Below, in pieces: positions 1,001 to 26,894 of a stretch of DNA of 45,243 bases. Under the pieces are notes generated by a model. The model was given only the letters and a program-made list of their open reading frames with translations. It was not told the DNA's origin and ran no database searches. This DNA is from Escherichia phage vB_EcoS-CHD5UKE2, in the sequence record NC_073059.1. One strand, given 5' to 3'. The position numbers and the translations under genes are program-made. Each line of letters starts with the position of its first letter. The first letter of the stretch is position 1.

Positions 1001-1017
1001 GGGGCCGTGCAGGCCCC
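1001..1017 (-). terminator. Rho-independent terminator after the major tail protein gene
   Basis: Hairpin ggggcc-gtgca-ggcccc followed on the minus strand by a T-tract (A-run 994..1000 on plus). Confidence 0.55.
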
Positions 1018-1047
1018 ATATTAACACTCGCTATTTAAGCGACCAAA

Positions 1048-1773: not shown

Positions 1774-1833
1774 AATGAAGCTCCTGTTTAGATATACGGA
1801 TTAATGATACAGCACGCGCAGAATTGCGCCAAA

Positions 1834-2849: not shown

Positions 2850-2850
2850 G

Positions 2851-3204: not shown

Positions 3205-3305
3205 CGTCTTCCTCCTTCGCCGGTACTTCCGGCGGTACTGGTTCTTCCTCTTTCTCTTTCGTCGCCAGCGCCGCCAGCAACGCTGCAATAACAGCCGGAT
3301 TCATA

Positions 3306-3806
3306 TTAGCCCCTGTATACGTCAAAGTTACCTGAAGCGTTGCCGTCTACGTTCACCCAGTAGCCCAGCAAGCCATCCCACCACGGGAACGCCACATATC
3401 CGCCAATCGTCGCGGGGTCATATTCCATCGTGATCGGGCCAACCGTTTCGCGAATAGTCTCTTTGCCACCGCCGATCGGAGAAATATCAATATCGTCCGC
3501 CACCAGCATCGCCAACCGGTAAACGGCTTGTTCAACGGCAACGGGAATTGATGCGAAGTCTACGATTTGCCCGGCAGGCACTACCGCCACAACTTCAGTG
3601 AGCGTGTCTCGCACCGGCTTACCGTCTGACGGGTAGTTGATGCGGGGCCATGCGTCGATTCCGGTCTGGTCCGCTTGTTCGCCGATCCAGTTGATGCCGT
3701 TAAGGAAGTCATTAACGATGGTAAGGTGTCGCGTTGCATCGCCCAGCGTAATCTCAACGCCTCGCGCAGCGGCATAATCAGTAAAGGTTTGCGGGTCGCC
3801 ATACAT
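3306..3806 (-). CDS. Head completion / connector protein (putative)
   Basis: ATG 3806 preceded by RBS AGGAG (8 nt); the longer ORF start at 3836 falls inside the capsid-gene terminator hairpin. Confidence 0.45.
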   Translation of the reverse strand: MYGDPQTFTDYAAARGVEITLGDATRHLTIVNDFLNGINWIGEQADQTGIDAWPRINYPSDGKPVRDTLTEVVAVVPAGQIVDFASIPVAVEQAVYRLAMLVADDIDISPIGGGKETIRETVGPITMEYDPATIGGYVAFPWWDGLLGYWVNVDGNASGNFDVYRG

Positions 3807-3827
3807 TTTATTCGCTCCTATAAAAAA

Positions 3828-3845
3828 GGCGGGCATAAGCCCGCC
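3828..3845 (-). terminator. Rho-independent terminator after the major capsid gene
   Basis: Hairpin ggcgggc-ataa-gcccgcc with T6 following on the minus strand. Confidence 0.6.
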
Positions 3846-3864
3846 CCTTTGGGATGTGCGCCGA

Positions 3865-4965
3865 TTAGGACGCGCTGGTCGGAGTCAGCGTAACCAGTAC
3901 GCCAGCCGTTTCCTTGATGTTACGGGTCGGCACGGCCTGTGCTGCCTGGGTCTTGCGACGGCCTTTAGTATCGCCATCACCCACCGCGCCAACATCCTGG
4001 ACGGTTGCCGGAGCGTTGTCTACCTGGCCCTGATCCAGCTCCCAGTTGTCCTTGGTGGTGATATCCGCCAGTGTGAACGAGCGGACACCTTCAACCGGAG
4101 TACGAGCGGACGCCTTCAGACGATAGCCTTTAACAGCCACGTTGAAGTCGAACTCACCCTGCCACCAGCGCTCGATGTTCTCGTTACCGCCTTTTTCCTG
4201 CGCCAGCATATCGAGGCCGTTGGTGGTAACTGCAACCGCGCCAGGGACCAGACCCAGCATTTTGCCCGCGCCCATAGCATCGGCAGCGGCATCGGAGATA
4301 ATGAAACGACGGCCCAGGCCATCACCCATTACTTGCAGATCGCCGATCGCGAATACCTGCTCAGCGGAAGGCAGCGCCTGGTACGCAATGAAGTTAGCCC
4401 AGGTAACGCCATCCATAAACCAGGACTTAATCAAAGACGCCTGATCGCCGAACTTAGAAGCCGCCAGAGGGAAGTCTGCCAGGGTCGGGAAAGTACGACC
4501 GCCAACGCCATCAACGCGCGCCGGTTGGGTGTATGCTGCCGCTGCGTTGCTTTCGATCGCCGCTTTACTTGCGCCGATACCGGCCTTCAGGTAATGCAGC
4601 ATAATCGCTTGAGTAGCCTGTGCCGCAATCTCAGCCGCAACGCTGTTAACGTTGGTTTCGATCTTAGCCATCATAGCCTTAGTGATTGCAACCGGACCCA
4701 CTTTCGCGGAGAGGTTAACCGAGTTGGTCAGCATACGCGCCAGCACTTTAGCGGTTGCCGGAGTACCGACAGGTGCATATGCGTTACGGTCAGTAACGAG
4801 GTTGGCGATCAAGCCGACGGACATTTTTTCTACAACGTCCTTCAGCACTTCACCTGTACCGAGAACAACAGCGCCATTAGCGGCAGCGTTGAACACGTTC
4901 AGGTTGTCGGGGATCATTTGCGTAACCGCGGTAACGAGTTTACGCTGGAACACTGTTAAAGACAT
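3865..4965 (-). CDS. Major capsid protein
   Basis: 366 aa directly downstream of the scaffold gene; RBS AAAGGA before ATG 4965; terminator after the gene. Confidence 0.65.
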   Translation of the reverse strand: MSLTVFQRKLVTAVTQMIPDNLNVFNAAANGAVVLGTGEVLKDVVEKMSVGLIANLVTDRNAYAPVGTPATAKVLARMLTNSVNLSAKVGPVAITKAMMAKIETNVNSVAAEIAAQATQAIMLHYLKAGIGASKAAIESNAAAAYTQPARVDGVGGRTFPTLADFPLAASKFGDQASLIKSWFMDGVTWANFIAYQALPSAEQVFAIGDLQVMGDGLGRRFIISDAAADAMGAGKMLGLVPGAVAVTTNGLDMLAQEKGGNENIERWWQGEFDFNVAVKGYRLKASARTPVEGVRSFTLADITTKDNWELDQGQVDNAPATVQDVGAVGDGDTKGRRKTQAAQAVPTRNIKETAGVLVTLTPTSAS

Positions 4966-5062
4966 ATCGAAATCCTTTGAGTTGTGAGCATTCGCCCAGT
5001 GACGTTAATGTTACCTTAGATTTACGCGCTCGCAAAATCGCCAGCTTTCGCGGGCGATCTGC

Positions 5063-5767
5063 TTACTCGTCGTCGCCCATCTTAGCGATGATATCCCCTG
5101 CCTGTTTCGTCAGGTCCGTGATACCGAAGCTATGGCCCATCGTGATTTTAGACTTCGCATCTTCGATAACCTGTGTCGGTTTGCTCGGAGCGCCACCAGC
5201 GGGCGTGCCAGCCAGGACGGATGCAAAATCAGCGTTATTACGGAACTCTTTTTCAAGCTCGTCCATAGTCAGCGCGGACGGTTTGCCATCCTGCAAGACA
5301 CGCACTTTCAAGCTGCCGTCTTCACCGTCTTCCAGCGCGAGGCGCTCCATTACGTGGCGTTGCATGATGCCAGCATTCTTACCAAACAGCTTCGATGCCA
5401 GGTCTTTGGCAGCGCTGCCGATAGTGAGGTCGTGGATCTGCTTGCGATAGGATTCGATTTTCCCCGATGTGTCTGCTTCGTGTTTTGCAAACTTATCCTT
5501 CCAAGACTTATCGATCGCTTCGAGGTCGCCATTTTTGCGCGCGGCGGCTTCCTCTTTCTCTTTCGCAAGGCGCTCGGCTTCGGCGCGGCGTTCAGCTTCT
5601 GCTTTCTTCTCGCTCACCAGCTTTGCGTTGTTGTCTTTCAGACCCTTGATTTCCGCCTGTACTTCCTCAGCGGACATAAATGTTGATTTATACCCGTCGC
5701 CATCGGCAACAAAAAGCGCCTTCATACCTTCCGGCAACGCGTCATATTCTGCTTTAGTAAGTTTCAT
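5063..5767 (-). CDS. Scaffolding protein
   Basis: Start revised to ATG 5767 (MKLTKAEYDALPEG...) with RBS AGGGGGA; charged coiled-coil segment (KKAEAERRAEAERLAKEKEE); lies before the capsid gene. Confidence 0.55.
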   Translation of the reverse strand: MKLTKAEYDALPEGMKALFVADGDGYKSTFMSAEEVQAEIKGLKDNNAKLVSEKKAEAERRAEAERLAKEKEEAAARKNGDLEAIDKSWKDKFAKHEADTSGKIESYRKQIHDLTIGSAAKDLASKLFGKNAGIMQRHVMERLALEDGEDGSLKVRVLQDGKPSALTMDELEKEFRNNADFASVLAGTPAGGAPSKPTQVIEDAKSKITMGHSFGITDLTKQAGDIIAKMGDDE

Positions 5768-5857
5768 GCTATCCCCCTGGGATTGTGGCAGAGCGGGCCA
5801 CCCGCTCGACTTCACGCTTCTAATATTATCAGCGATAAAAATAATCGCAAAATTCGC

Positions 5858-5887
5858 TTGCAATCCTGGTATTGGTTGCACTATATT
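5858..5887 (+). promoter_or_regulatory. Sigma70-like promoter for the plus-strand island
   Basis: -35 TTGCAA (5858..5863), 18-bp spacer containing ATTGGTTGCA, -10 TATATT (5882..5887); second TTGGTTGCA at 5886..5894. Confidence 0.5.
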
Positions 5888-5922
5888 GGTTGCACACCAA
5901 CAGAGATATGAAGGAAAACAAA

Positions 5923-6237
5923 ATGAATAACATGACCGTAGCAACTCCAGTAGATGCAGCAATGACCCGTTTCAATAAAGCTGCCGTTGCCAATACCTTT
6001 ACCTTTCACGCGATGCGTAACGCTGAAGCGCTGAATCTGTGCCAGAGCATGAACGCTACTGAAGCTGCGAAAGCTGCGATCAATTCCGCAACCTTCGATA
6101 ATCCGGCTTGTGGTCTGGTTCCGGCATCTTTCATCAACGCCCTGGTCGAAGCCTTTAACGATTTCATGTGCGTTGATGCCGTTGAAGCAGTATGCGCTCG
6201 CTTAACCTCCATCGGTGGCAACATCAAGTTTAACTAA
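5923..6237 (+). CDS. Hypothetical protein (first gene of the plus-strand island)
   Basis: ATG 5923 with RBS AAGGAAAAC; 104 aa; no recognised motif. Confidence 0.5.
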   Translation: MNNMTVATPVDAAMTRFNKAAVANTFTFHAMRNAEALNLCQSMNATEAAKAAINSATFDNPACGLVPASFINALVEAFNDFMCVDAVEAVCARLTSIGGNIKFN

Positions 6238-6276
6238 ACCAAATGGGGCGAAAGCCCCAACAATGAGGAAACACAA

Positions 6277-7041
6277 ATGAGACTGACAAAAGACATTAAA
6301 AACCAGATTCTGGCTAACATCCTGCGCGGCCACGAAATCGCGACTGAAGCCAAATCAATCATGATGGACTCTCGCGACCTGGCGTACGCAATTACGCTGG
6401 ACTGTATGCCAAAAGGCATTCACACGTTCGCCGAGCTACGCGCATATATCGCAGAAATCCGCGATAACCAGTCGCAGATGTACGGCGTCAGCGTTTACAC
6501 CGACAAGGCGACGTATAGCTATAACAAAGACCGTCAGAAAGGCATTGGACGCGTTTACTGCTCCACTTTCGAAATCAACGCAGGCGGTAACATCCGTACC
6601 CTGCATATGAGCGGCGACGGATACCGCTACCGCCAGCACCGCGGATACTGGGAAGAAAAATATATGAATACGCTCGCGCCTGACGTTAGCGATATTGTAC
6701 CGGGGTACGAGGAAATTATGCTCGCGTCAGTATGTGAAGTGGATGAGGACGGAAAAGCGCTGCCGATATATCTACCACGCGGTCGCGTAGACTACCCGGC
6801 AGAGCATGATTTCTGCAAGCGCCTGGACCACAACGACAAGGCCCGCCGTGAATTGCGTGCGAAGTATGACGCGTTCAAACTAACCGTTACCGGCGTGCTG
6901 GATATGCACAATACTGACAAGAAGCTGATCGCGGCGTGGCCTGAAGTTGAACAATTCATTCCATACCCGGACAAGCCGAAGTCAACGGCAGTAGCGCTGG
7001 ATGTGAAGACGTTAAACGAAATCTGCGGTATTCCGCGCTAA
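6277..7041 (+). CDS. Hypothetical protein (island gene 2)
   Basis: 254 aa ORF with RBS GAGGAAACA; no recognised motif. Confidence 0.55.
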   Translation: MRLTKDIKNQILANILRGHEIATEAKSIMMDSRDLAYAITLDCMPKGIHTFAELRAYIAEIRDNQSQMYGVSVYTDKATYSYNKDRQKGIGRVYCSTFEINAGGNIRTLHMSGDGYRYRQHRGYWEEKYMNTLAPDVSDIVPGYEEIMLASVCEVDEDGKALPIYLPRGRVDYPAEHDFCKRLDHNDKARRELRAKYDAFKLTVTGVLDMHNTDKKLIAAWPEVEQFIPYPDKPKSTAVALDVKTLNEICGIPR

Positions 7042-7098
7042 CAAAAGGGGGCTGTAATGGCCCCGAATTATCGTCTACATAACCACGAGGAAATTAAA

Positions 7099-7614
7099 AT
7101 GATTAAAGTTAACTACGCCGATCTTAAAGCCGCTACGATATGCGCCGCAACTAATGACGTCCGATACTTCCTAAATGGTGTATTTTTCGACGAGAAAGGA
7201 TACATCGTGGCTACAGACGGTCACCGTTTGTTCTGCGGGTCTGCGGTTGTACCAGAAGGTGAAAGTAAAATAGTATCAATTAAAGGCCGCTTACCTACTA
7301 AATTCGAATACTGCAACATAGACGGCACCTCCGCCGCGTTCTTCGATAGTAAAGACGTATTAATAGCTACCATACCCATCGAGATTGTAGACGGGCTATT
7401 ATTTCCAGACTGGAGAAGAGTTACGTCTTTCATCAGCAATAAAGTGGAGGCTATCGGGTTTAACGGGGCATACCTATCCGACGCCTGCAAAATTGCTAAA
7501 TTGTTCGACCGTAAGTTTGAGGGATTAAAACTGGAATTTCAGGGAGTAGACAAGGCAACACGCGTGCTGTTCAAAGGAGGTGCCTTTTTAGTTATCATGC
7601 CGATGCGTTTGTAG
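7099..7614 (+). CDS. Truncated DNA polymerase III beta sliding-clamp (DnaN) homologue, about 171 aa
   Basis: Recalled DnaN signatures: DVRYFLNGVFF, ATDGHRL, FPDWRRV, AIGFNGAYLSD and C-terminal VIMPMRL (E. coli beta ends VVMPMRL); ATG 7099 with RBS GAGG; ORF-track start at 7057 lies in a hairpin. Confidence 0.6.
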   Translation: MIKVNYADLKAATICAATNDVRYFLNGVFFDEKGYIVATDGHRLFCGSAVVPEGESKIVSIKGRLPTKFEYCNIDGTSAAFFDSKDVLIATIPIEIVDGLLFPDWRRVTSFISNKVEAIGFNGAYLSDACKIAKLFDRKFEGLKLEFQGVDKATRVLFKGGAFLVIMPMRL

Positions 7615-7624
7615 TTAACAAAAA

Positions 7625-7643
7625 GGGGGCCATCACGGCCCCC
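7625..7643. terminator. Bidirectional terminator hairpin between the convergent island and spanin genes
   Basis: gggggcc-atcac-ggccccc with A-run upstream and T-run downstream. Confidence 0.5.
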
Positions 7644-7863
7644 GAATTATTTTCTGCAACTCCAGCACTTGCGCCCTTAGCTTAGCCCCGCATTCCATAT
7701 TTTTAACATCAACCAGCAAGTCTTCGTCTGGATCTGCCGATGCATTCTCAAAGGTGCAAGGCGGTCTATAGACCGACTCGGTTAGCGGCGTCGATGGCGC
7801 TTTGCTTGATCCGCACGCGCTCAGCATCAAAACTACAATCAGGACGGTTAGGACGCGTAACAT
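7633..7863 (-). CDS. Outer-membrane spanin (Rz1-like lipoprotein)
   Basis: Signal peptide with lipobox LSAC (MLRVLTVLIVVLMLSAC); RBS AGAGG; overlaps the 3' end of the i-spanin gene in another frame. Confidence 0.6.
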   Translation of the reverse strand: MLRVLTVLIVVLMLSACGSSKAPSTPLTESVYRPPCTFENASADPDEDLLVDVKNMECGAKLRAQVLELQKIIRGP

Positions 7864-8074
7864 ATTTTACAACCTCTTTCGTGATAGTCCGGTATTCCAC
7901 GTCGCGGGCTTGCTCAGCCTTCACCGACCCCTCAACAACCTTAGTTTGCTGCCGTTGGGCTTCCGCTTGCGCTTCTTGCGCCGCTTTCGCCACAACGCCA
8001 GTGCGGTAGGAATCACCCTGCCAGAATCCAACCGCCAGACCGATAACTAGTCCGATCGCCGCATATTTAATCAC
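7766..8074 (-). CDS. Inner-membrane spanin (Rz-like)
   Basis: N-terminal TM helix (IKYAAIGLVIGLAVGFW) and coiled-coil periplasmic part; no in-frame ATG, so GTG at 8074 (RBS GGGGG) is proposed instead of TTG at 8104. Confidence 0.55.
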   Translation of the reverse strand: MIKYAAIGLVIGLAVGFWQGDSYRTGVVAKAAQEAQAEAQRQQTKVVEGSVKAEQARDVEYRTITKEVVKYVTRPNRPDCSFDAERVRIKQSAIDAANRVGL

Positions 8075-9170
8075 GCCATAACCCCCGGTTTTTAAGCTGT
8101 GCAATAGTCATTAGTTCGCCGGTATCGGTGAACATCTTAGGCACTTTCACGCCGCGCATAATCTGGTCTGCGCGCTGCACCCCATATAATTCCTCCAGAA
8201 TATGGCGCGGCTGGCGCTGCACCCATGAGAAGAAATCAGTCTGCGCGTCGACCTGCTCACTCAGCAATCGACCCGCGTCAGCCTTCAGTGCCGGACGCTT
8301 ACCACTGGGCCAATCTTCCATGCCTTTAACTTTCCACGTCTCCGTCGAACGGCAGCAATAATGTAGCTTGCCCGGACCAGCGCCATATTGTGATCCAGCC
8401 ACCACTTTCCCGCCGCGCTTTCCTTTGGTGTCGGGAGTGACGTCAACAGGATAAAACAGGCGATCGCGTAGTTGGCACATTGGTGATGTGTGCGTATCCA
8501 ATGTAGCCAACCATTGGCGACCTTCGAGAATTTCGTCATTAGCTTTCACCATTAACTCGCGGGCGGTCGCCGCATAGTGGTTTACTGCGGACTTAACAAC
8601 ACTTGAGATAGCTTGCGCGCTACGACCGCCGAGAGCGCGCTTTACGTCCGCGATAATTTCCATAGTCGGCTTGCCCTGGATGAATCCAGCGCGCACCTGA
8701 TTCCCGATCTGCGTCCTGGTCCACTCAGAAAGTGAATCAGGCCATTGCATCATGGTGTTTCCCTGGAACGGGTTTTTCATAGCCGTGGCCGCAATCTGCG
8801 CGCCAGTCACTACGCCAACAACCTCAACAGCCGGTACGGCTACCGCAGGCTGGATCGCTGCCGTTAATGTATCGGCAAGATAATCAGCCTCGGTGTCGGC
8901 AAACTCCTGAAGGCTTTCAGCCAGCGCCTTAAACTCGGTGCGCAGTTCCGTTTTGACGGTTTTGTCTATTTGCGTTAACAGTGTGGTCAGTGCCTTGTTA
9001 TTCATGGACTTTTTGCCATCAAGTAACTCGGTCAGCTTGCCAAGTAACGTGGGTCGGAACTTCTCCCACATAGCCAACACCCGCCGCGCCTGGTCATTGC
9101 TCAGGCGCTGGGTGAAGATGTGACGGCGAATCATGCGATCCGCCATATGTTGATTAATTGTTCTCGCCAT
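8067..9170 (-). CDS. Head morphogenesis protein (Mu F / SPP1 gp7-like)
   Basis: 367 aa after the portal gene; motif TLDTHTSPMCQLRD typical of Phage_Mu_F domain. Confidence 0.6.
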   Translation of the reverse strand: MARTINQHMADRMIRRHIFTQRLSNDQARRVLAMWEKFRPTLLGKLTELLDGKKSMNNKALTTLLTQIDKTVKTELRTEFKALAESLQEFADTEADYLADTLTAAIQPAVAVPAVEVVGVVTGAQIAATAMKNPFQGNTMMQWPDSLSEWTRTQIGNQVRAGFIQGKPTMEIIADVKRALGGRSAQAISSVVKSAVNHYAATARELMVKANDEILEGRQWLATLDTHTSPMCQLRDRLFYPVDVTPDTKGKRGGKVVAGSQYGAGPGKLHYCCRSTETWKVKGMEDWPSGKRPALKADAGRLLSEQVDAQTDFFSWVQRQPRHILEELYGVQRADQIMRGVKVPKMFTDTGELMTIAQLKNRGLWRD

Positions 9171-10674
9171 TGTCCGCTACCTTGTCCGGGTCTTCTTCGG
9201 TAGATTCTACCGCATCAGGGGACATTTGAGGCAATGGATTCTGATTTCGCAATTCGTCTTCCACCTGCTCTACGGTTTGCGAGTCATCGATAACGCCCTG
9301 CGCCATCATCCACTTGATGAAGTCAGCCAGTCGGACCGTACCGGTCTGAACACCAGCCATCATTGCGGTCATAAGCTGCGCGTCAACCGTGATTTCGGTG
9401 TAGAACTTGTTCAGCGTCACGCGCTGGTCCGCGGTATCACCCGTGAATAGCTGGACGATTTGCAGCGCACGGTTGAAAGCCTTCTCAACGTTACCGGCAA
9501 TGAGCGACAGGATACTATTGTCAGTCTGCGCATCGTATGCCGCTTCAGTTGCCGTCTTTGGTGCAGTCCCCTTCTCAACCAGGGCCGCGCCCAGTTTAGC
9601 CATCTGCAATTCGCGGCGCTCACAAAGTGCAACAGACAAGTTGCGCTCCTCGGCCTGAATCAGTTTAGCGTCCATGTTCTGGCCCAGGATAACGCCCTTA
9701 GTCGCGCCGAGAGCAATCCCACCCTTCAGGTTTTTGTCGGCCCATGATTGAGTCAAGCCCGTGGCGACAAGGGTAGGCTGACCCACGATGTGCGCGATCT
9801 CGGCAACGTCCGCCTCAGCGTTGTAGTGCTTAATGTTGATGGATGCAATATCCGCCAGCGGCGCGGCGTCAGGCGTTGCGTTGTTGTCCACCGCACCGCA
9901 CCAGCAAAATGGCAGTTGAGTAAGCGCTCGACCGGCAGCATCCACCAGCGGCACAAGCTCGGTGCGGGTGAAGCCACGCGGCAAATCCATCTGCACCTCG
10001 GACGTGTCTGCGTTGTAAAACCAGCGGCGGGCGTGTGCTGCGCCGTTAATCATGCGCAATTCAGTCCAGATCGTTACTTCGTGGTTTGCAAAGTCGTCCG
10101 GGTCTTCGGTGCTGATTTCGTCCGTTTCCTTCAGCACGATTAGCGTGTCAATCCCGTGGGTCTGCCGCCAGTTGATGATCTGTTCTGCCGTATACAGGCG
10201 GATAAGCGGGCGGTGCGTCGCCATCTCGGCGGCGGTCTGCGGCACTACGTTACCCAGTTCATCAAAGTTAGCCTGGCGGTCGTAGTCCACCATAAAGCCC
10301 GCGCGGCCCGATTGCAGCACTTCCGACATAGCACCGCGCAGGAGTTGCGGCAGTGGCATTCCGCTGCCGTCTACGTCATCAATCAGGTCAGCCATCGCCC
10401 CGGAAAGGTCCAGACTTACCGGCTTAGCGAAGGCGACGCCTAACAGCGCATTAAGCGTGCGTGCGGTGGCGTTCAGGAATACAGCGCGTTGCTTATATGC
10501 CTTATATCGCGCCCGTGCTTTCGGGTCGGTATTATCGCCACTGGCGGGATGTGGCAGGTACAAGGGGCCGCACGCCTTCACGGCGCGCTCCCCCGCTACG
10601 CAATCCCGGATCATTTTCCACTCCTGCGCGATGCGCGCATAGAGTGGGTGCTGGTTGTCAACGTTAACGGTCAT
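9154..10674 (-). CDS. Portal protein
   Basis: 506 aa immediately downstream of the terminase large subunit; RBS AAGGAA; acidic C-terminus. Confidence 0.65.
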   Translation of the reverse strand: MTVNVDNQHPLYARIAQEWKMIRDCVAGERAVKACGPLYLPHPASGDNTDPKARARYKAYKQRAVFLNATARTLNALLGVAFAKPVSLDLSGAMADLIDDVDGSGMPLPQLLRGAMSEVLQSGRAGFMVDYDRQANFDELGNVVPQTAAEMATHRPLIRLYTAEQIINWRQTHGIDTLIVLKETDEISTEDPDDFANHEVTIWTELRMINGAAHARRWFYNADTSEVQMDLPRGFTRTELVPLVDAAGRALTQLPFCWCGAVDNNATPDAAPLADIASINIKHYNAEADVAEIAHIVGQPTLVATGLTQSWADKNLKGGIALGATKGVILGQNMDAKLIQAEERNLSVALCERRELQMAKLGAALVEKGTAPKTATEAAYDAQTDNSILSLIAGNVEKAFNRALQIVQLFTGDTADQRVTLNKFYTEITVDAQLMTAMMAGVQTGTVRLADFIKWMMAQGVIDDSQTVEQVEDELRNQNPLPQMSPDAVESTEEDPDKVADNGENN

Positions 10675-17927: not shown

Positions 17928-20189
17928 TTAATCTTTCAGGTCGTCATCGGTCGCTGAAAGCGTGATTGGGATATCCGATTTGATGACCAGATTCGACGAC
18001 CCATAGATGGCCCCGGTGTGTGGATCTGTATAAAAACCGAGCACGCCGCGCTCCACCATATCGTCGATTGCCTTCGTCGATGTGCCACCTTTCGCGAGTC
18101 CAGCCTGGCGGACAATTGCCGATTTACTGAATCCAGTATGGTCCGGGTTATCTTCCATCAGTTTCTCCAGTGCCGCATAAAGCACCTTCTCTTTTTCGTT
18201 GCGCGGTCCGGCGGTGTTCTCTTCCTTAACTGCTGCCTTGCCTGCGGCCTTCGCCTGTTCAATAGCGAACGGTGCCAGGGCGACCGGTACGAGGTAAAGA
18301 GTCTCGTCGCGTGGCGTGGATGCAATTGGCTTGACGTCCCAACCGGCAACCACATCGCCGAAGTCCGGACCGGTGCTGGTGGACTGGTGGGCTTCGAACG
18401 CCTCGGACTTACGGAGATCCACCTTCACCTTGCACTTGAGCAGGACGAAGCCACGCGGCGCTTGCTTAATCCCGTTACGGGATTTTTCGTGATACAGGTT
18501 GAGTTGGCCTGGCTGGTTGTCATCCGGCTGTTCCAGGAAGAACGCAGAATCAACAGCACCATGAAGCGCGCCGGACCCGCGTGGCGATCTGCTGCCGTTT
18601 GCGCCCTTAGCCGGGTGATGGATGACGCCCGCACTGCCACCTGTATTTTCCGCAATGGCCTTCAGCGCCTTGACCACTTCGCCCATATCGCTGGCGTTGT
18701 TCTCGTCGAACGGTTTGGCATCAGCGGACCGCAGCGCTACAGTCTGGTTGAGTGAGTCGAAGGCCACCAGGCCAACCGGCTCCCCGTTAGCGGTGCGGTT
18801 GATAAAGCTGATAACTTCGCGCAAGCCTGACTTGCTGGTAATATCCCAGCCGCGTGATTGCAGATCGACAATGTGCAGCTTGTCGAGGTCGTGCTCGTAT
18901 TTAATCTGCAATGCTTCCTTACGCTGGTTGGAGGCTTCGCCACCTTCCGCATCGAAATAGAAGTTATGGCACTGGACGACCTTCGCGCCACCAAACGGAA
19001 TACCGGCAGATACGGACGCCATCTGGCCCAGCACGTAGAACGACTTACCAATGTTCGACTCACCGGCAAGATACCAGGTCGATTTGAAGTTGACCAGGCC
19101 TTCGATGATCGGGTCGTGCTTACTGAATAGTGCAACAGGTTCGTTGTCCAGGTCAGCGTCGGTGCATTCGCCGTACTCGTCGCCGTCGCCGACCGCATCA
19201 ACAATATGTTCATAGCATGATTCCACTTCCTCGTCGTCCAGTCCCGGAAGGATGGCGGCGATTTGCTTGCGTGACATGTTGTGCGGTTCAACGTTCAAGT
19301 GGTCCGGGATACCGATCAGACGTAACGCCAGGTGCTGGTGTTTGTTCAGTTCGGAACAGCACTCGTTGCCGGTGTGCATACACTTGAAACGGATCTCGCC
19401 ATCCTTAACCATGATAGCCGTCGACCCGCCGCCGCTATGCAGGTGCTCGTTCGGGCACGGCACTTCATAACCGCGACCGGATGACAGTGGTTCAAAGCCA
19501 GCCTGGAAGCACCAGTCCAGAATCCCGTCCGCCACGCCATCGTCGCCCTGGGTCAGTTCGCGGCGTACTTCCTCTTTCTCCACTCCCAGCTTGTCAGCCA
19601 GGCGAAGCAGGCGACGGACACGGGCGCGCTTGCCAGGATGACACGACACGGTAGATCCGGAATGGGGGAGGAATTGCAGGTTGTTAACGTTTTTTGTGCA
19701 ATCATCAAACGGCACGTCTTCCAGCCCCAGGTGTTTCAATAGCGCGAACTGCGCACGGCCTAAATCGGAAACATCAACCGGTTTATCAGTGAGCACCAGG
19801 AAACGGGCGCAACGTGTGCCGCCCTTCAGCGGGTGGCGGTCGCCTGTAGTGGAGTAGTAGACGTGGGATAAGCCGGATTTGCGAAAGGCACGCTTAACGC
19901 GACCGAGGGTACGGTTGTCAGTGCGGTCCAGGTCATAGAACAGTACGGAACGGACACCTACTTCCGTAGCACGACGGCCTCGGCCTTTAGTGGTGGCGAC
20001 AATGCCTTCGGCCTTGCCTTTCACCTCGTCGTATTCTTTCTTAGTCTCGTCGCCGGTAATGGTTACGCTGGATAGCTCAACGGTATCCACGACGTATTCC
20101 ATAAACTCGGCTTCAGTCATAGAATGGTTTTTAACACGCTTGCCGTACTTACCACCAACGGTGCCGAACTCAATTAAATAGTTTTTCAT
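17928..20189 (-). CDS. DNA primase / replicative helicase (RecA-like ATPase domain)
   Basis: 753 aa; Walker A GESNIGKS in the C-terminal half; Cys/His cluster CPNEHLH...C in the N-terminal half. Confidence 0.6.
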   Translation of the reverse strand: MKNYLIEFGTVGGKYGKRVKNHSMTEAEFMEYVVDTVELSSVTITGDETKKEYDEVKGKAEGIVATTKGRGRRATEVGVRSVLFYDLDRTDNRTLGRVKRAFRKSGLSHVYYSTTGDRHPLKGGTRCARFLVLTDKPVDVSDLGRAQFALLKHLGLEDVPFDDCTKNVNNLQFLPHSGSTVSCHPGKRARVRRLLRLADKLGVEKEEVRRELTQGDDGVADGILDWCFQAGFEPLSSGRGYEVPCPNEHLHSGGGSTAIMVKDGEIRFKCMHTGNECCSELNKHQHLALRLIGIPDHLNVEPHNMSRKQIAAILPGLDDEEVESCYEHIVDAVGDGDEYGECTDADLDNEPVALFSKHDPIIEGLVNFKSTWYLAGESNIGKSFYVLGQMASVSAGIPFGGAKVVQCHNFYFDAEGGEASNQRKEALQIKYEHDLDKLHIVDLQSRGWDITSKSGLREVISFINRTANGEPVGLVAFDSLNQTVALRSADAKPFDENNASDMGEVVKALKAIAENTGGSAGVIHHPAKGANGSRSPRGSGALHGAVDSAFFLEQPDDNQPGQLNLYHEKSRNGIKQAPRGFVLLKCKVKVDLRKSEAFEAHQSTSTGPDFGDVVAGWDVKPIASTPRDETLYLVPVALAPFAIEQAKAAGKAAVKEENTAGPRNEKEKVLYAALEKLMEDNPDHTGFSKSAIVRQAGLAKGGTSTKAIDDMVERGVLGFYTDPHTGAIYGSSNLVIKSDIPITLSATDDDLKD

Positions 20190-20917: not shown

Positions 20918-21433
20918 ATGTTTGAGCAAATCGTAAACCTGATCACACGCGGCGTTGTAGCACTGGAAACCATCGCTAAGCATTATGAAACTGCGGGCGC
21001 TGCCGTTGATAAACAGGAAGCGAAGAAAGCCCCGGCGAAGGGCAAGGCGAAAGAAGTAGTCGAAGATGACGATGCTGAAGACGAAGCACCGGCAAAGACC
21101 AAAAAAGCGCCCGCAAAGGGCAAGGCTAAGAAAGAAGCCGTAGAAGAAGACGACGACGCGGACGAGGAAGAAGCCCCGGCGAAATCTAAGAAAGCACCGG
21201 CGAAAGGTAAAGGCAAGAAAGATGCCGATCTGCTGAAAGAAATGCGCGACGAAATCAAGCAGTATGCCGCTATTATTGCGGGCGGTGATGACGACGACGC
21301 AAACGACGAATTTGATGATCTGCTGGAAGCGTTCGAAATTAAATCCGTTGCCAAGCTGGAAGATGACGACGTCGAAGACTTCCACAAAGATTTAAAAGAA
21401 ATCGTAGAAACGTATTTCGAATTAGAAGATTAA
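20918..21433 (+). CDS. Early protein with alternating Lys-rich (KKAPAKGKAKK) and acidic repeats
   Basis: RBS GGAG 7 nt before ATG; three APAKxKKAPAKGKxKK units separated by Asp/Glu runs; intrinsic terminator immediately downstream. Confidence 0.6.
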   Translation: MFEQIVNLITRGVVALETIAKHYETAGAAVDKQEAKKAPAKGKAKEVVEDDDAEDEAPAKTKKAPAKGKAKKEAVEEDDDADEEEAPAKSKKAPAKGKGKKDADLLKEMRDEIKQYAAIIAGGDDDDANDEFDDLLEAFEIKSVAKLEDDDVEDFHKDLKEIVETYFELED

Positions 21434-21733: not shown

Positions 21734-21921
21734 TGACTATATTCTTTGTTTTATTTCGCTGCCGTATTACCGGCGACGAGCAACCAGAAATTGTTATGAA
21801 TCAAAACTGGAATTGTTGCTGGACGCAAGCCCGCGGACTGGCATCAACCATGAACGAAGCCGCGAAGCGCGCCAATGTTAAACACGATTATTACATTGCT
21901 CAATTTTCAAGGGTGGAATAA
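21733..21921 (+). CDS. Hypothetical small protein
   Basis: ATG 21733 with RBS GGAGAC (ORF-track start 21718 is not ATG); 62 aa. Confidence 0.4.
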   Translation: MTIFFVLFRCRITGDEQPEIVMNQNWNCCWTQARGLASTMNEAAKRANVKHDYYIAQFSRVE

Positions 21922-23321
21922 TGGCTATTAAACCGAAGCGCAAAACGCAATCCGGCAGCAATACGGAGCACTCATTACTTGGGCCATCGGGATCTAAAAA
22001 ATGGATGGGGTGTCCTGCCGCCCTGGTAGTCGAAAAAGGTATCCCGAATGAGTCCGGGCAAGCGGCGATTAACGGTACGAGTATGCACACCGTATCTGAA
22101 GTAGTGTTAAACCGCATCATTGCCGGTGAGAAGAAGCTATCCGCGAAGACGTACAAAGGGTGCTACGTCGAGAACGAAGGTAAGGGACCGGTAAAGGCCC
22201 ACCCGAAAGCACCGAAAGGCGGCGTGCTGGTCAACGACGATATGGTGAAACAGTGCGATGCATACATCGACCACTGGCGACCGCTCCTTGAAGTGGCGGA
22301 GTTTGTACAGCTTGAAATGCGCGCCGATCTCACCCGCATCTTGCATCCAGGCTTCGAGATAGACGGCAACAAGGTGAAGACGTTCGGAACTGCCGATATG
22401 GTAATGGTCATGAAGAAGACCGACGGCACGTACATGCTGATTGTTGGCGACCTGAAGACCGGGCGACATAAGGTCGAGGCGAAAGAAAACAAACAGCTTA
22501 TGTTGTACGCGCTGGGCCTGCTGCGCAAGCTGCAAACCATGTACGACATTACAACCGTTCGCCTGGTAATCTTCCAGCCGTATTGCGGCGGGGCGTCGGA
22601 GTGGGATATTACCGTGGAAGCGCTGGAGATATTCGCGAAGTTTGCATCCAAGCGTGCTATTGACGCACTGGACGCGTATTCCCGCGGCAAGAAGGGGCTT
22701 ACCCGTGCCGACTTCCGACCGAGCGTTGATGCCTGTCAGTGGTGTAGATTTGCGGATCAGTGTAGTGCCCGCGCTAAGGCCGCCATCGACACGATGACCC
22801 CACCAACGGCAACAGACGACGACCTGGCGGACGAAGCACCGAAGGCTACCGATCGCGAAGCCCGGAAAGCGGCACGACGTGCGAAGCGTGGCAAGAAAGA
22901 AGAAGAAGCACCAGGCGCTATGAGCGCGGCGGAACTGCGCAAGGCATATGAAGGTCTTGACGCAATGCGCCAGCACATCAAGGCTATCGAGTCCGCGGTA
23001 TTCAAGGCCGTAATGGCGGGCGATGGCGAATCGCTGGGCCTCAAGATGGTTGCCGGTAAGGAAGGTAATCGCAAGTGGGCGGACGAAAGCGAAGTGATTG
23101 AAGTCTTCACGAAGGCCCGGATCAAGCGCGATGTGATGTACAAAGAAACATTGCTCAGTCCTACCGATGCCGAGAAGGTATTGAAGGACGAGAAACCGAA
23201 AGTGTGGGCGAAGTTGTGTGATAAAATCACGCGCGCCCCAGCTAAACCGGTATTGGCACCAATCGACGACCCGCGCCCCGCGTGGTCTGAAGCTACTGAT
23301 GAGGACTTAAGTAATGAATAA
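21921..23321 (+). CDS. PD-(D/E)xK exonuclease, Cas4/RecB-like
   Basis: 466 aa; nuclease core motifs GTADMVMV and GDLKTG...QLMLYALGL; Cys cluster CQWCRFADQC; Lys/Arg-rich C-terminal region. Confidence 0.55.
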   Translation: MAIKPKRKTQSGSNTEHSLLGPSGSKKWMGCPAALVVEKGIPNESGQAAINGTSMHTVSEVVLNRIIAGEKKLSAKTYKGCYVENEGKGPVKAHPKAPKGGVLVNDDMVKQCDAYIDHWRPLLEVAEFVQLEMRADLTRILHPGFEIDGNKVKTFGTADMVMVMKKTDGTYMLIVGDLKTGRHKVEAKENKQLMLYALGLLRKLQTMYDITTVRLVIFQPYCGGASEWDITVEALEIFAKFASKRAIDALDAYSRGKKGLTRADFRPSVDACQWCRFADQCSARAKAAIDTMTPPTATDDDLADEAPKATDREARKAARRAKRGKKEEEAPGAMSAAELRKAYEGLDAMRQHIKAIESAVFKAVMAGDGESLGLKMVAGKEGNRKWADESEVIEVFTKARIKRDVMYKETLLSPTDAEKVLKDEKPKVWAKLCDKITRAPAKPVLAPIDDPRPAWSEATDEDLSNE

Positions 23322-23556
23322 GGTGTTTGCATTCGTATTGATGATTATGCTCGGTGCGCTGGGCTTTATCCTGCATTGCGTGCAGGGCGTGTTAATGGTG
23401 GCCTGGATGATTCGCCATCCATCCCGCTGGCTGGACGATGGCTACAGTGACGTTGCCGTAGACTGGGTGTTAAAGCATAAAGACCGCCCGCCGTTAAGCT
23501 GGATCGAGAACGCCTCCGACTACGTGATCCGAAATCTTTTTAATAAAAGTGCTTGA
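23314..23556 (+). CDS. Small membrane protein
   Basis: 80 aa with two hydrophobic helices; start overlaps the exonuclease stop. Confidence 0.45.
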   Translation: MNKVFAFVLMIMLGALGFILHCVQGVLMVAWMIRHPSRWLDDGYSDVAVDWVLKHKDRPPLSWIENASDYVIRNLFNKSA

Positions 23557-23581
23557 CCGCTTAGGCGCAACCAAGTAAATT
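23553..23581 (+). promoter_or_regulatory. Sigma70-like promoter upstream of the SSB gene
   Basis: TTGACC-N17-TAAATT with two direct GCAACCAAG boxes (23567..23575, 23583..23591). Confidence 0.45.
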
Positions 23582-23645
23582 AGCAACCAAGCCGAACGGG
23601 GTGGCTCACAATAACCCCGATACATGCGAAATGAGGAAATGAAAA

Positions 23646-24377
23646 ATGGCTAAAGTCAACCTGAAAAACGTGCGCGTATGCTTCCTGAAAATTTGGGAAC
23701 GTGATACCCCTAAACAGGATGGACAAAAACCGGCATACCGTGCCGTGATTCTTCTTGATAAAGAAGATCCGCAGGTGGACAAAGTGGAAGCGGCAGCGCG
23801 CGCAGTGCTCACCGACAAGCTGAAATCCGAGAAGAACGCCGATAAGTGGATGGACCGCCACTACGCCCAGGATTCTAAGGAATGCGCAGTTCGCGACGGT
23901 GATGAGCGCGACGAAGTAACCGAAGAGTTTGAAGGCATGCTGTACATCAACGCCAAATCGTTCAAACAGCCTAACATCCAAACGTCACTGGGCGAGAAGC
24001 AGACCGAACAGGGTCTGACTATCGACGGCGACGAGATCGAAGGCCAGGAAATCTATTCCGGTTGTTATTGCAACGTGTCCCTGGATATTTGGGCGTGGAA
24101 CAACACCAACGGCAAAGGTCTAGGTGCGGGTTTGATGGGTCTTCGCTTCCGTGGTGATGGTGATTCCTTCGGTGGCGGCGGGTCTTCTTGTTCCGATGAC
24201 GACCTGGGCGACGATGACGAAGATGAAGCACCGCGCAAGGCTAAGAAGTCCAAACGTCGTGATGACGATGACGAAGACGAGGAAGACGAAAAACCTCGCA
24301 AGCGTCGCAAGTCCCGCGATGACGAAGATGAGGACGACGACGAAGACGAAGCACCACGTAAACGTCGCCGCCGTTAA
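23646..24377 (+). CDS. ssDNA-binding protein (T7 gp2.5-like / DUF2815-like), with alternating acidic/basic C-terminal repeat tail
   Basis: N-terminus MAKVNLKNVRVCF and YINAKS resemble the gp2.5-like family as I recall it; C-terminal 60 aa are three DDEDE...APRKRRK units; RBS GAGGAAATG. Confidence 0.45.
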   Translation: MAKVNLKNVRVCFLKIWERDTPKQDGQKPAYRAVILLDKEDPQVDKVEAAARAVLTDKLKSEKNADKWMDRHYAQDSKECAVRDGDERDEVTEEFEGMLYINAKSFKQPNIQTSLGEKQTEQGLTIDGDEIEGQEIYSGCYCNVSLDIWAWNNTNGKGLGAGLMGLRFRGDGDSFGGGGSSCSDDDLGDDDEDEAPRKAKKSKRRDDDDEDEEDEKPRKRRKSRDDEDEDDDEDEAPRKRRRR

Positions 24378-24395
24378 GGGCAAAGCCCACTATTC

Positions 24396-24419
24396 AAGCC
24401 CGCTTATTGCGGGCTTTTT
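24396..24419 (+). terminator. Rho-independent terminator after the SSB gene
   Basis: Hairpin aagcccgc-ttatt-gcgggctt followed by a T-tract. Confidence 0.6.
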
Positions 24420-24435
24420 ATTAGGACAATGAAAA

Positions 24436-24606
24436 ATGCGTATTAAAGCCAGTGAAGTAAAAGTCGGAATGCGTGTATGGTCCAAATTGCTGGGCGAGTA
24501 TTTTACCGTTGCCGAGATTCGCAACAACGGCGAAGAGATTGCCTTGTCGGATGGTATCTTCTCCATGATCGGCAGCGCTGACGCAGTAGTGAGGATAAAG
24601 CAATGA
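24436..24606 (+). CDS. 56-aa protein translationally coupled to the DNA polymerase, not in ORF track
   Basis: ATG 24436 after RBS AGGA; stop TGA overlaps the polymerase ATG (ATGA). Confidence 0.45.
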   Translation: MRIKASEVKVGMRVWSKLLGEYFTVAEIRNNGEEIALSDGIFSMIGSADAVVRIKQ

Positions 24607-26894
24607 AAGACTTCGAACGCCTGTTTCTTGACACCGAGACATATAGCGGGGTGGACCTGAAGAAAGCAGGTGCGTATGCCTATGCAGAACACCCATCCAC
24701 CGAGATTATGATTTGCACCTACGCCATCGACGAGGGCCGCGTGCAGACATGGGACGCCACTGAATCCCCCACGATGCCGCGTGAACTGCGCAAGGCGCTA
24801 CGCCAGGTAACCCGCAAGAAAGCAAAAATAGTGATGGCTAACGGCCTCCTGTTTGACCGCCTGGTTATCCGTGAAAAGTGGGGCATCGACCTGCCGGTAA
24901 GCCAGATCGAAGATACGATGATTATGGCCTTTCGTCACGCGCTGCCGGGTGGCCTCGATATGCAATGCCAGGTGCTGGGCGTTGACGCAGAGCACGCGAA
25001 GGATAAGGCAGGCAAGGCGCTGATTAAGCGATTTTGTAAGCCGACCCCTAAGACCTACAAAATCCGCCGCTACACGCGCGAGACTCACCCTGAAGAATGG
25101 GCTAAATTCCTGCGCTATGCCGCGCTGGATATTATCGCAATGCGTGAAGTCTACTGGCGAATACCGGACTGGGGCAACTCACCGAAGGAAGATGAAATCC
25201 TGCGTATCGACCAGTTGATTAACGACCGTGGCTTCTATGTGGACGTTGACCTGGCGAACGCCGCGATCAAGGCGGTGCAGGTGCACAAAGAAGAATTGAA
25301 GGAAGAAGCCTGGGAACTGTTCGGCGGTAAACTGACCGGTAATGACTTCCTGCCAATCCTGCGTGATATTGCCCCGGCGTTCACCATTCACAACGCGCAG
25401 AAATCCACGCTGAATGATTTGCTGGAAGATCCAGACTTCCCCGACGAGGGCAAAGTGCTTATTGAAATGCGCCTCGGCGCGTCATCAACGGCATCGACTA
25501 AATACAATCCGCTCGTCAATGGTCTTTCTGCCGATGGTCGCCGCCGTGGTTGTCTTCAGTATGGTGGGGCAAAGCGCACACTACGCTGGGCCGGTAAAGG
25601 CTTTCAGCCTCAAAACCTGGCACGTGGCGAGTACAGTGATGACCACGAAGGGAAGATTAAGCGCCGCGAAGGTGAGAGCGACGTCTCGTTTTGGGTACGG
25701 TCGCACATGCTCACCAACGGCATCAACTCCCTGTTACGCGGGACCGCGCACTGGGCGTATGACATATCGAAGCTAACCGCCTCGACCGTTCGCGGGTGCA
25801 TTATCCCGGCTAAGGGCAAGAAGTTTGTTGTAGCGGACTACTCCAACGTGGAAGGGCGTGGCCTTGCCTGGATCGCTGGCGAGAAAACCGCGCTTATGGT
25901 GTTTAAGGCCGGACGCGATATCTATTGTGAAACTGCCGGTAAGATGTTTGGCCTTGACCCGGACTACATCAAAGCCAACCGCAAAGACCTACGCCAGATT
26001 GGTAAGGCGTGTGAATTGGGACTGGGCTATGGTGGCGGCGTCGCGGCGTTCTTGCAGTTTGCTAAAAACCTGGGCCTCGACCTGTACGCAATGGCTGACG
26101 TCATGAAGGGAACATTCCCCGATCATATTTGGGCGGCGGCTAAACGCGGTTATGAGTTTGCCCGCATCAACGAAGCGAAGCGCCCGCCGAAGACCGGCAA
26201 GAAAGACGAGCGCCCGACTTACATACTGCCTAAAAACGTGTGGTTGACCTGCGACGCGATCAAACGTATGTGGCGTGAATCTCACCCGAAGACCGTAGCC
26301 TTTTGGGCCGAGCTTGAGGAGGCGGTGTTATGTGCGATACGCAATCCAGGTAAGGCATACTGGGCTGGCGCGAACGTTCGCCCGGATGGCAAGAAAGCGC
26401 TCAAGATTGTGCGCACGAAGGCGAAGCACGACCCCACCTTTGACGAGGAACGCGACGACCCGAACGCCGCGGGCTGGTGGCTGAAGGTTGAGTTGCCGTC
26501 AGGGCGAATCATGAGCTACCCCGGAATCGCGCTGTCTGTCACTACCGAGATTGACGAAGACACCGGCAAGAAGCGCACCAGTACCCGCATCAAATACCAG
26601 GGCGAGAATCAGACGACGCGCCAGTGGGGATTCCAATATACCTACGGCGGCAAACTTACGGAGAACATCGTACAGGCGTTGTGCCGCGATATTCTCGCAT
26701 GGTCCATGCCTGGTGTTGAAGCTGCGGGCTATGAAATCGTCCTGTCAGTGCACGATGAATTGATCACCGAAGTGCCGGACACCGACGATTACACGACCGA
26801 GGAGCTTTGCGCGCTGATGTGTGACCTGCCTATATGGGCGAAAGGTTTCCCACTTGCCGCCGAAGGCGACATCATGTATCGGTATAGGAAGTAA
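24603..26894 (+). CDS. DNA polymerase, family A, with 3'-5' exonuclease domain
   Basis: 763 aa; Exo I-like LDTETYS; Pol A motif B-like RQIGKACELGLGYGGG and motif C VHDELI. Confidence 0.8.
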   Translation: MKDFERLFLDTETYSGVDLKKAGAYAYAEHPSTEIMICTYAIDEGRVQTWDATESPTMPRELRKALRQVTRKKAKIVMANGLLFDRLVIREKWGIDLPVSQIEDTMIMAFRHALPGGLDMQCQVLGVDAEHAKDKAGKALIKRFCKPTPKTYKIRRYTRETHPEEWAKFLRYAALDIIAMREVYWRIPDWGNSPKEDEILRIDQLINDRGFYVDVDLANAAIKAVQVHKEELKEEAWELFGGKLTGNDFLPILRDIAPAFTIHNAQKSTLNDLLEDPDFPDEGKVLIEMRLGASSTASTKYNPLVNGLSADGRRRGCLQYGGAKRTLRWAGKGFQPQNLARGEYSDDHEGKIKRREGESDVSFWVRSHMLTNGINSLLRGTAHWAYDISKLTASTVRGCIIPAKGKKFVVADYSNVEGRGLAWIAGEKTALMVFKAGRDIYCETAGKMFGLDPDYIKANRKDLRQIGKACELGLGYGGGVAAFLQFAKNLGLDLYAMADVMKGTFPDHIWAAAKRGYEFARINEAKRPPKTGKKDERPTYILPKNVWLTCDAIKRMWRESHPKTVAFWAELEEAVLCAIRNPGKAYWAGANVRPDGKKALKIVRTKAKHDPTFDEERDDPNAAGWWLKVELPSGRIMSYPGIALSVTTEIDEDTGKKRTSTRIKYQGENQTTRQWGFQYTYGGKLTENIVQALCRDILAWSMPGVEAAGYEIVLSVHDELITEVPDTDDYTTEELCALMCDLPIWAKGFPLAAEGDIMYRYRK

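Follow-up and report, generated by a model that had tools for sequence, protein, structure and literature searches.

What does it mean when a protein that binds single-stranded DNA (an SSB) ends in basic residues? SSB tails are organising hubs of DNA replication and repair, and the accepted rule is that of an acidic tail with a free hydrophobic end, which is read by the partner proteins. The question is raised by the SSB gene of Escherichia phage vB_EcoS-CHD5UKE2 (hereafter CHD5UKE2), a Dhillonvirus and thus a siphophage of E. coli, whose sequence record NC_073059.1, of 45,243 nucleotides, was analysed as a whole and is called here the window. The gene, an open reading frame (ORF) at 23646..24377 (+) of 243 amino acids, encodes an SSB and single-strand annealing protein of the T7 gp2.5 / Enc34 ORF6 type. 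A first reading made from the sequence alone had proposed that, at the C-terminus of this protein, three tandem acidic-then-basic units take the place of a purely acidic tail. Translation and charge statistics confirmed the three units. The replacement, however, was not borne out: an acidic docking element persists just upstream of them as SDDDL, and the repeats are a clade-specific block-polyampholyte addition to this retained docking motif.

The translated protein ends in GGGGSSCSDDDLG, DDDEDEAPRKAKKSKRR, DDDDEDEEDEKPRKRRKSR and DDEDEDDDEDEAPRKRRRR, the last followed by the stop codon, and the stretch that directly precedes the three units is FGGGGSSCSDDDLG. Unit 1 (24210..24260, +) reads DDDEDE-AP-RKAKKSKRR, unit 2 (24261..24317, +) reads DDDDEDEEDE-KP-RKRRKSR, and unit 3 (24318..24374, +), which forms the C-terminus, reads DDEDEDDDEDE-AP-RKRRRR; the start at 24183 given in the sequence-only reading also covers SSCSDDDLG, ahead of the units. 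The last 55 residues are 85% charged, with 27 D/E and 20 K/R. Along them the sign of the charge changes five times, compared with 23.0 +/- 3.3 times in shuffled sequences, and not one of 100,000 shuffles came down to five. Therefore, the charge repeats are real and not a product of chance. The exact probability of finding six charge runs or fewer in these residues is 1.3e-8, and a kappa-like index of charge patterning reaches 0.58 in the tail against 0.10 +/- 0.05 after shuffling. Furthermore, when a strict filter for an acidic run followed by a basic run was applied to the six frames of the whole window, the three units of the SSB were the only sites recovered.

The structure of the protein was modelled with AlphaFold2 on 47 homologues, and the model was compared with known structures by Foldseek. 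In this model the repeat units have a per-residue confidence (pLDDT) mostly below 50, with values of 45-59 over the last five blocks of ten residues, and neither helix nor strand is present after residue 170. The tail is predicted to be disordered and, by its charge fraction and patterning, is a block polyampholyte. When the tail by itself (61 residues) was used as a query for homologues, 1233 word candidates came up, none of them at E <= 0.001, because the composition correction removes sequences of this kind. The profile PHROG 15004, labelled 'SSB', matches residues 184-242 weakly (E 3.5e-5), a match which may reflect composition only. A eukaryote-style nuclear localisation signal was also considered for the basic blocks and dismissed as irrelevant in a bacterial host.

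The N-terminal part leaves little room for doubt. The Pfam family PF10991 (Enc34_ssDNA-bd, formerly DUF2815) matches residues 3-193 with an E value of 1e-31 and 110.4 bits, where the cut-off is 26; PHROG 112 ('Gp2.5-like ssDNA binding and annealing protein') matches at E 1.7e-56; and the search of PDB sequences with the SSB returned 4klk, 4jg2 and Enc34 ORF6 (5odj/5odk). Foldseek placed the model closest to 4klk (2.8e-12), to the complex of the Enc34 SSB with single-stranded DNA (ssDNA), 5odl (9.8e-12), and to T7 gp2.5, 1je5 (1.7e-6). The sequence-only reading had called the protein SSB-like; profile search found the SSB family, and all these lines agree on an SSB of the gp2.5 type, so that the lack of an SSB fold can be set aside. 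The OB-fold ssDNA-binding domain occupies residues 1-172 (23646..24161, +), with pLDDT mostly above 90. It is followed by a Gly/Ser linker, GGGGSS (residues 176-181; 24171..24188, +), in which pLDDT falls; a G-rich linker is kept across the family alignment. Within the IYSGCY motif of the SSB, Y137, G139 and C140 are invariant in that alignment, and YSGCYCNVS aligns with YSGCYARVS of the Bacillus cereus homologue 4jg2. Tyr136 and Ser140 are named in this segment by the Enc34 structure paper as the DNA-stacking tyrosine and the polar 'kink' residue four positions on, and a pair of stacking aromatic and kink residue of the PF10991 type appears, at the level of the sequence, to be present in the SSB of CHD5UKE2. 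We consider the identity of the protein as a gp2.5-type ssDNA-binding and annealing protein to be practically certain; preferential binding of ssDNA and annealing would be indicated indirectly, through the homologue of phage SECphi4.

The motif retained between the linker and the repeats is CSDDDLGD (24189..24212, +; residues 182-189), acidic and hydrophobic; unit 1 begins with its last residue, D189. In the family alignment, SDDDLGD lines up with DDF[DE], the first motif after the linker in the canonical members, SDDDL itself being residues 183-187. The second, C-terminal hydrophobic tip of the canonical members is missing, and the repeats stand in its place. As 56 residues follow SDDDL, the motif is not at the free C-terminus.

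How far this arrangement departs from the family norm was evaluated in two ways. A census that started from 1.84 billion cluster representatives yielded 2341 family members, and the tails of the top 147 were inspected: at least four K/R in the last eight residues were found in only seven of them, so that for this family an alternating tail with a basic end is unusual. In addition, the tail was delimited in 220 retrieved proteins, and the 190 with fewer than six K/R were taken as the canonical set. These canonical tails have a mean length of 27 residues and a net charge of -8.0 +/- 2.9; in 187 of the 190 at least one of the final three residues is hydrophobic, and only seven have any K/R among the final eight. 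The SSB of CHD5UKE2 ends in APRKRRRR, without the short acidic tail and hydrophobic terminus of its family.

Homologues were then collected with the OB domain alone, and the class of tail was compared with the identity of that domain. Every full-length, in-frame homologue of this search with an OB-domain identity of at least 44% (213-290 amino acids) has an alternating acid/basic tail, and in the same list the homologues at 37% or less (161-209 amino acids) have short acidic tails. One unit, in a tail that ends in DDLEDDEEDEAPRRERRRR, is carried by the SSBs of the Jersey and Kagunavirus type, which are 36-40% identical and do not figure in this list; the SSBs of Hafnia phage TS33 and Salmonella phage SE1 have two to three. 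Within Dhillonvirus there are two units in P0002 and P0003, three in CHD5UKE2, Dru_SM5, Bas16 and SECphi4, and four in Bas85, CHD2B1, SECphi18 and P0004 (537 member sequences); judged by gene length, alleles with four units predominate among the closest 40 records. To judge from these sequences, the repeat tail is conserved across Dhillonvirus and Guernseyvirinae and is not peculiar to CHD5UKE2. Only in this clade does the SSB motif have one to four such modules (acidic block, x-Pro, basic block) after it, mostly with oligo-Arg at the end.

Acid/basic repeats also occur elsewhere in the family, in some cases placed after the OB domain and ahead of an ordinary hydrophobic tip: P0176 ends in DDLV, P0215 has (DDDDDRGSRSRSR)n and ends in SDLVD, and P0223 ends in DDDLPF. 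This suggests that the role of such repeats is separate from docking through the tip. Together with P0158 and P0154, these three represent PF10991 lineages with independent acid/basic or RD/RG/RS repeat regions.

The tail is not free to vary. The ratio of non-synonymous to synonymous substitution rates (dN/dS) is 0.06-0.09 in the tail and 0.04-0.07 in the OB domain, so that the tail is under purifying selection about as strong as that on the OB domain. Six Dhillonvirus alleles have exactly the same terminal APRKRRRR. A proline is present at 50 of the 57 acid-to-base junctions and at none of the 18 base-to-acid junctions. Within the clade with repeat tails, most tails have a net charge of -5 to -9, independently of how many units they contain, and that of CHD5UKE2 has -10, near the canonical -8. 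We consider it very probable that the tail is a functional, selected, disordered module.

The number of units, on the other hand, changes quickly, by whole-unit in-frame insertions and deletions. SSB genes of CHD5UKE2 and Bas85 differ at one synonymous site in the 175 codons of the OB region, yet their tails differ by one unit of 54 nucleotides (nt) plus 6 nt. Compared with Bas85 and CHD2B1, one 54-nt unit is missing right before unit 2, at the repeated GATGACGATGACGAAGA. Alignment of the homologues for variation in repeat number, proposed in the sequence-only reading, showed one to four units. The same reading had the repeats encoded by a tandem DNA repeat, and this held only in part: in-register, gapless DNA copies of the units are degenerate, 65-80% identical (80% over 49 nt between units 2 and 3), and Tandem Repeats Finder, run over 23600-24450, reported no period of 51-57 nt, only periodicities of 3 and 6 nt. 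Cleaner copies are seen in relatives: those of Bas85 are 85% identical, and vB_EcoS-22664B1 has a 54-nt tandem duplication that is perfect.

Some deposited alleles are frameshifted in the tail. The SSB genes of vB_EcoS-22664B1 (969-1076 of the locus) and vB_EcoS-101114B2 carry +2 nt and +8 nt with respect to CHD5UKE2, adjoining a perfect 54-nt tandem duplication of unit 1, and reading continues in the +1 frame to a C-terminus in VKGKAHYSSPLIAGFLLGQ; the metagenome protein P0006 is likewise frameshifted inside the tail. These could be either assembly or sequencing errors or a natural loss of the terminal basic block. An artefact is likelier, because the substitutions, when read in frame 0, are synonymous, and the indels adjoin the perfect duplication.

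A further aspect of the docking motif is that it recurs in two other proteins of the phage. The form [AC][TS]D[DE]DL is shared by the SSB, by the C-terminus of the helicase-primase (SATDDDLKD; 17931..17957, -; ORF 17928..20189 of 753 amino acids) and by the DUF2800 exonuclease (ORF 21921..23321), which has it both at its C-terminus (EATDEDLSNE; 23289..23318, +) and in an insert, TATDDDLADEAPKATDREARKAARRAKRGKKEEE (22806..22907, +). This insert amounts to one SSB-like unit, with motif, acidic run, AP and basic run; among the five phages compared it is present in CHD5UKE2 only and is absent from Jersey, K1G, TS33 and SE1. The simpler pattern [DE][DE]DL occurs five times in the 47,200 residues of the six-frame ORFs, where 0.83 are expected, and four of the five are in the SSB, at the helicase-primase C-terminus and in the exonuclease. 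The second helicase of the phage (SNF2-type) and its PolA were checked for a DDDL tip, and neither has it.

Relatives keep comparable elements in the same three proteins. Helicase-primases end in TTERDLE (Jersey), TEEDLE (K1G), DDSDLEN (TS33) and EEEDLEN (SE1), and exonucleases in QVTAEDLE (Jersey), QVSEEDLE (K1G) and AVKDDLGD (TS33); the SSB motifs are VDDLEDDE, VNDLEDDE, DDNDLNDD and TDSDLDDD in Jersey, K1G, TS33 and SE1, respectively. Outside the clade, the Enc34 proteins (locus 568-10334) end in DDEDEV (primase), EDDDEV (exonuclease), WDEDEV (SSB) and WDDEED (helicase), and no acidic tip was found when the Enc34 PolA was checked. The primase and exonuclease tips go unmentioned in the Enc34 SSB structure paper. 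Two T7 proteins have tips of this kind, DEDGDF in gp2.5 and SNDTDF in gp4, and the tip of the exonuclease of Corynebacterium phage Adelaide, TAEDDFASA, is similar to SAESDFGAV of its SSB. A common acidic tip on SSB, helicase-primase and exonuclease thus looks like a general feature of the module. Since Enc34 and T7 share the tips without basic blocks on the SSB, the tip predates the basic extension. In the Dhillonvirus/Guernseyvirinae clade it is only the SSB that has the motif buried under a repeat extension.

On these grounds, we propose that SDDDL would serve as the docking element for a partner common to SSB, helicase-primase and exonuclease. PolA would most likely be this partner, both by comparison with T7 and since, among the core replisome proteins compared, it is the one without a tip. 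The SSB's own DNA cleft would be an alternative receptor, because the Enc34 and T7 tails bind there. The repeat extension would work electrostatically, as a block polyampholyte: its basic blocks would pair with acidic blocks of their own molecule, which would mask the docking motif, or of an adjacent SSB, and they could also contact DNA. The outcome would be a tuned cooperative coating, strand annealing and condensation, and a DNA-dependent exposure of the docking motif, a role that may be likened to what the basic segment at the N-terminus of T4 gp32 and the disordered linker in E. coli SSB do. A precedent is found in the Enc34 SSB, where removal of the tail confers binding to double-stranded DNA. 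The self-interaction or RNA/DNA binding that the sequence-only reading had suggested for the basic blocks is a reasonable conjecture. Taken as a whole, a gp2.5-type SSB with a retained docking motif and an electrostatic repeat extension is the best explanation we can offer, and we would give it even chances; the specific electrostatic mechanism is put forward more tentatively.

Several observations weigh against this proposal. The SSBs of TS33 and SE1 have a few acidic residues at the very end, which shows that the C-terminus need not be basic. In the helicase and the exonuclease the motif is terminal, in the SSB it is internal, and it may therefore not be read in the SSB as it is in those enzymes. 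If the frameshifts in 22664B1, 101114B2 and P0006 are real, the terminal basic block (APRKRRRR) is dispensable for plaque formation in the laboratory. Since the mutations that escape Retron-Eco8 lie, in the accessible part of their source, outside the tail, no phenotype is attached to it. Finally, each mechanistic step beyond a disordered, selected and charge-patterned tail is one that we infer, and the receptor of SDDDL, most likely PolA, is likewise proposed by analogy.

A wider version of the same proposal would make the repeat tail a new hub element of the SSB, multivalent and charge-patterned, which together with the ATDDDL-type tips of helicase-primase and exonuclease would assemble the replication and recombination machinery on SSB-coated DNA, possibly as a condensate, with a valency rapidly tuned by gain and loss of units. 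The SSB would then carry receptor (the basic blocks) and ligand (the acidic motif) alike. We regard this version as speculative and rather improbable.

Among the competing explanations, the one that survives best takes the basic blocks as landing pads on which the helicase-primase and the exonuclease would bind through their acidic tips. DNA coated with SSB would recruit these enzymes by charge complementarity, the valency would depend on how many units there are, and the acidic blocks of the SSB itself would compete for the same pads. It would account for the fact that the acidic tips of both enzymes are kept in exactly those phages with basic blocks on the SSB, and the internal acid/AP/basic unit of the CHD5UKE2 exonuclease and the variable number of units speak for it as well. 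Nevertheless, we find it unlikely: Enc34 and T7 share the tips without a basic block on the SSB, so the tips need a receptor other than basic blocks, and an oligo-basic disordered segment would give little specificity.

Another possibility is that the extension serves for evasion, a buried and Arg-capped tip being hidden from host readers of free SSB C-termini or from defence systems that sense SSBs. The SSBs of the close relatives SECphi4 and SECphi18 are experimentally shown triggers of Retron-Eco8; the SECphi4 homologue activates this retron and is reported to bind its multicopy single-stranded DNA (msDNA). Other systems also respond to phage SSBs, and a rapid change in the number of units would fit an arms race. 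However, the escape mutations recorded in the accessible part of Table S2 of bioRxiv 10.1101/2022.08.27.505566 are T56P, within the OB domain, or changes of the promoter, and none of those entries is in the tail; T56 is also present in the SSB of CHD5UKE2. The published work on Retron-Eco8 displays residues 1-186 of the SSB only and refers to the rest as 'flexible C-terminal residues'. In addition, the data on tail deletion in T7 lend no support to masking, and the residues of the tail are under purifying and not diversifying selection. We therefore hold this explanation to be quite improbable.

Somewhat less probable still is a neutral expansion of low-complexity sequence, in which slippage-prone runs of GAY/GAR and CGN/AAR codons would have lengthened through slippage in replication and would merely be tolerated, as spacer sequence. 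Indels of whole units at short direct repeats, the perfect 54-nt duplication of 22664B1 and the existence of deposited frameshifted alleles are what slippage would leave behind. It is contradicted by the dN/dS of the tail, equal to that of the OB domain, by an architecture, a junction proline and a net charge that are kept even where the OB-domain identity between phages is only 36-60%, and by the invariance of the terminal APRKRRRR in the six Dhillonvirus alleles. As to an overlapping or frameshifted product, for which a +1 ORF of 93 amino acids (24151..24432), with peptides such as TKTKHHVNVAAVK and a possible second C-terminus, and the records P0001, P0006, 22664B1 and 101114B2, which read on in that frame, could be invoked, its probability is very low, given that in frame 0 the great majority of the differences between relatives are synonymous, that the 2-nt and 8-nt indels, which lie beside a perfect duplication and come in both records from one study, are typical of assembly or sequencing problems, and that the +1 frame is open because of the GAN/AAR/CGN codon composition. 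A real overlapping +1 gene was rejected for this last reason, and the ORFs of 70-93 amino acids in other frames over the tail (+1 frame, 24151-24432; - strand, 24065-24383) were set down as compositional artefacts and not as credible genes.

With regard to the genomic context, the SSB gene lies between the DUF2800 gene, which encodes a PD-(D/E)XK exonuclease (21921-23321), and the family A DNA polymerase gene polA (24603-26894). The duf2800-gp2.5-polA replication-recombination module is a known gene set (PMC8093625). A promoter-like site, TTGACC-17-TAAATT, is located upstream of the SSB gene (23553..23581, +); with 9 of 12 positions in the consensus scan it scores no better than shuffled sequences and is weak evidence, and in phage Jersey a promoter is annotated at the equivalent position. 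After the gene there is an intrinsic terminator (24396..24425, +) with an 8-bp stem, six G-C pairs and a following T-run, and a terminator is annotated at the same place, 3' of the SSB gene, in phage Ent1. Between SSB and PolA, a small ORF of 56 amino acids (24436-24606, +) belongs to phrog_10102, with no assigned function. SECphi18 has a near-identical counterpart of it, for which the accessible part of Table S2 of the bioRxiv study cited above lists an E21 frameshift among the defence-escape mutants; the row adjoins that of the PolA R171L escaper, which is ascribed elsewhere in the same preprint to the system Borvo.

A second protein with charge repeats had been pointed out at 20918 in the sequence-only reading, and its three acidic/Lys-rich repeats are indeed present. 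In this protein of 171 amino acids (20918-21433, +; phrog_3127), an acidic run and then APAK-x-KKAPAKGKAKK make up each of the three repeats, after which comes an acidic, helical-looking C-terminal part. Its acid-to-base junction, DEAPAK, resembles DEAPRK of the SSB.

Database matches of the SSB gene are numerous, with 153 phage records; other SSB genes of Dhillonvirus are 91-95% identical to it in nucleotides (95% for Bas85 and 91.7% for SECphi18). Records labelled as Campylobacter phage A144 (H50, MG065648.1), and others named after Acinetobacter or Sodalis, also match the Dhillonvirus gene. The OB domain of A144 is 97.6% identical to that of the Dhillonvirus SSB, and either mistaken host labels or contaminated preparations may lie behind these matches.

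The protein family, the duf2800-gp2.5-polA module and the role of the Dhillonvirus SSB as a retron trigger were already known. In the searchable literature we found no description of the charge-block tail, of its conservation across the clade, of the variation in unit number or of the ATDDDL-type tip common to three proteins. Dhillonvirus and Guernseyvirinae, phages of E. coli and Salmonella that are well sequenced and in experimental use, break the acidic-tip rule in a conserved and selected way, and the motif common to SSB, helicase-primase and exonuclease provides a testable map of the possible competitors for one site in an otherwise uncharacterised replisome. Because these SSBs trigger Retron-Eco8 and the phages are in the BASEL collection, clones, phages and assays exist, which makes this an easy system for the study of charge-patterned tails. 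No principle is overturned, and the observation should be of moderate interest to specialists in SSBs and replisomes.

The closest system for comparison is the ORF6 SSB of Enterobacter/Hafnia phage Enc34 (PDB 5odj/5odk/5odl), which shares with the SSB of CHD5UKE2 the Pfam family, the fold and the gene order exonuclease-SSB-PolA. In both proteins a Gly-rich linker is followed by an acidic segment, and in both phages the motif of the SSB tail recurs in the primase/helicase and the exonuclease. Short and acidic throughout, the Enc34 tail has D/E at 16 of the last 29 residues (PMC5686142) and ends in DEDEV. By comparison, the SSB of CHD5UKE2 has 55 extra residues of alternating blocks, ends in RKRRRR, and is only about 20% identical in the OB domain. 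T7 gp2.5 has the same type of OB fold (1je5) and is likewise the SSB and annealing protein of a replisome with PolA and helicase-primase, sharing its acidic motif with gp4. The final Phe of gp2.5 matters for binding to T7 DNA polymerase, and deletion of F232 prevents the interaction. Its acidic tail is C-terminal and lacks basic blocks, whereas the equivalent Leu motif of CHD5UKE2 is internal and followed by the charge-block repeats. The SSBs of SECphi4 and SECphi18 are near-identical proteins with the same design of tail and differ in the number and order of the units.

Further likenesses are found in less related proteins. The disordered linker of E. coli SSB reportedly controls cooperativity and the formation of condensates (Kozlov and Lohman, and Harami et al. 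in 2020, are said to have established this). That protein is built of an OB domain, a disordered linker and an acidic-hydrophobic tip, and it is in the position of the linker that P0176, P0215 and P0223 have their acid/basic repeats. Its linker is rich in Gly, Gln and Pro and nearly uncharged; moreover, in CHD5UKE2 the order is reversed, first the tip and then the repeats, and the OB fold and oligomeric state are different. In T4 gp32, according to what Casas-Finet and Karpel are said to have described, the basic N-terminal 'B' segment, or LAST motif, drives cooperativity between neighbours. Short and rich in Lys, Arg and Ser, it belongs to a phage SSB that is monomeric and has an acidic segment as well, and blocks of the type RKSKKSKRR are similar to it in composition. 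This basic segment is single, lies at the opposite end of the protein and belongs to an unrelated fold family, so that no homology is claimed. Lastly, blocky polyampholyte disordered regions of eukaryotic nucleolar proteins were reportedly treated by Das and Pappu in 2013. Those regions likewise combine a high fraction of charge with segregated blocks; the proteins are unrelated, and the likeness to the tail of the CHD5UKE2 SSB is one of analogy only.

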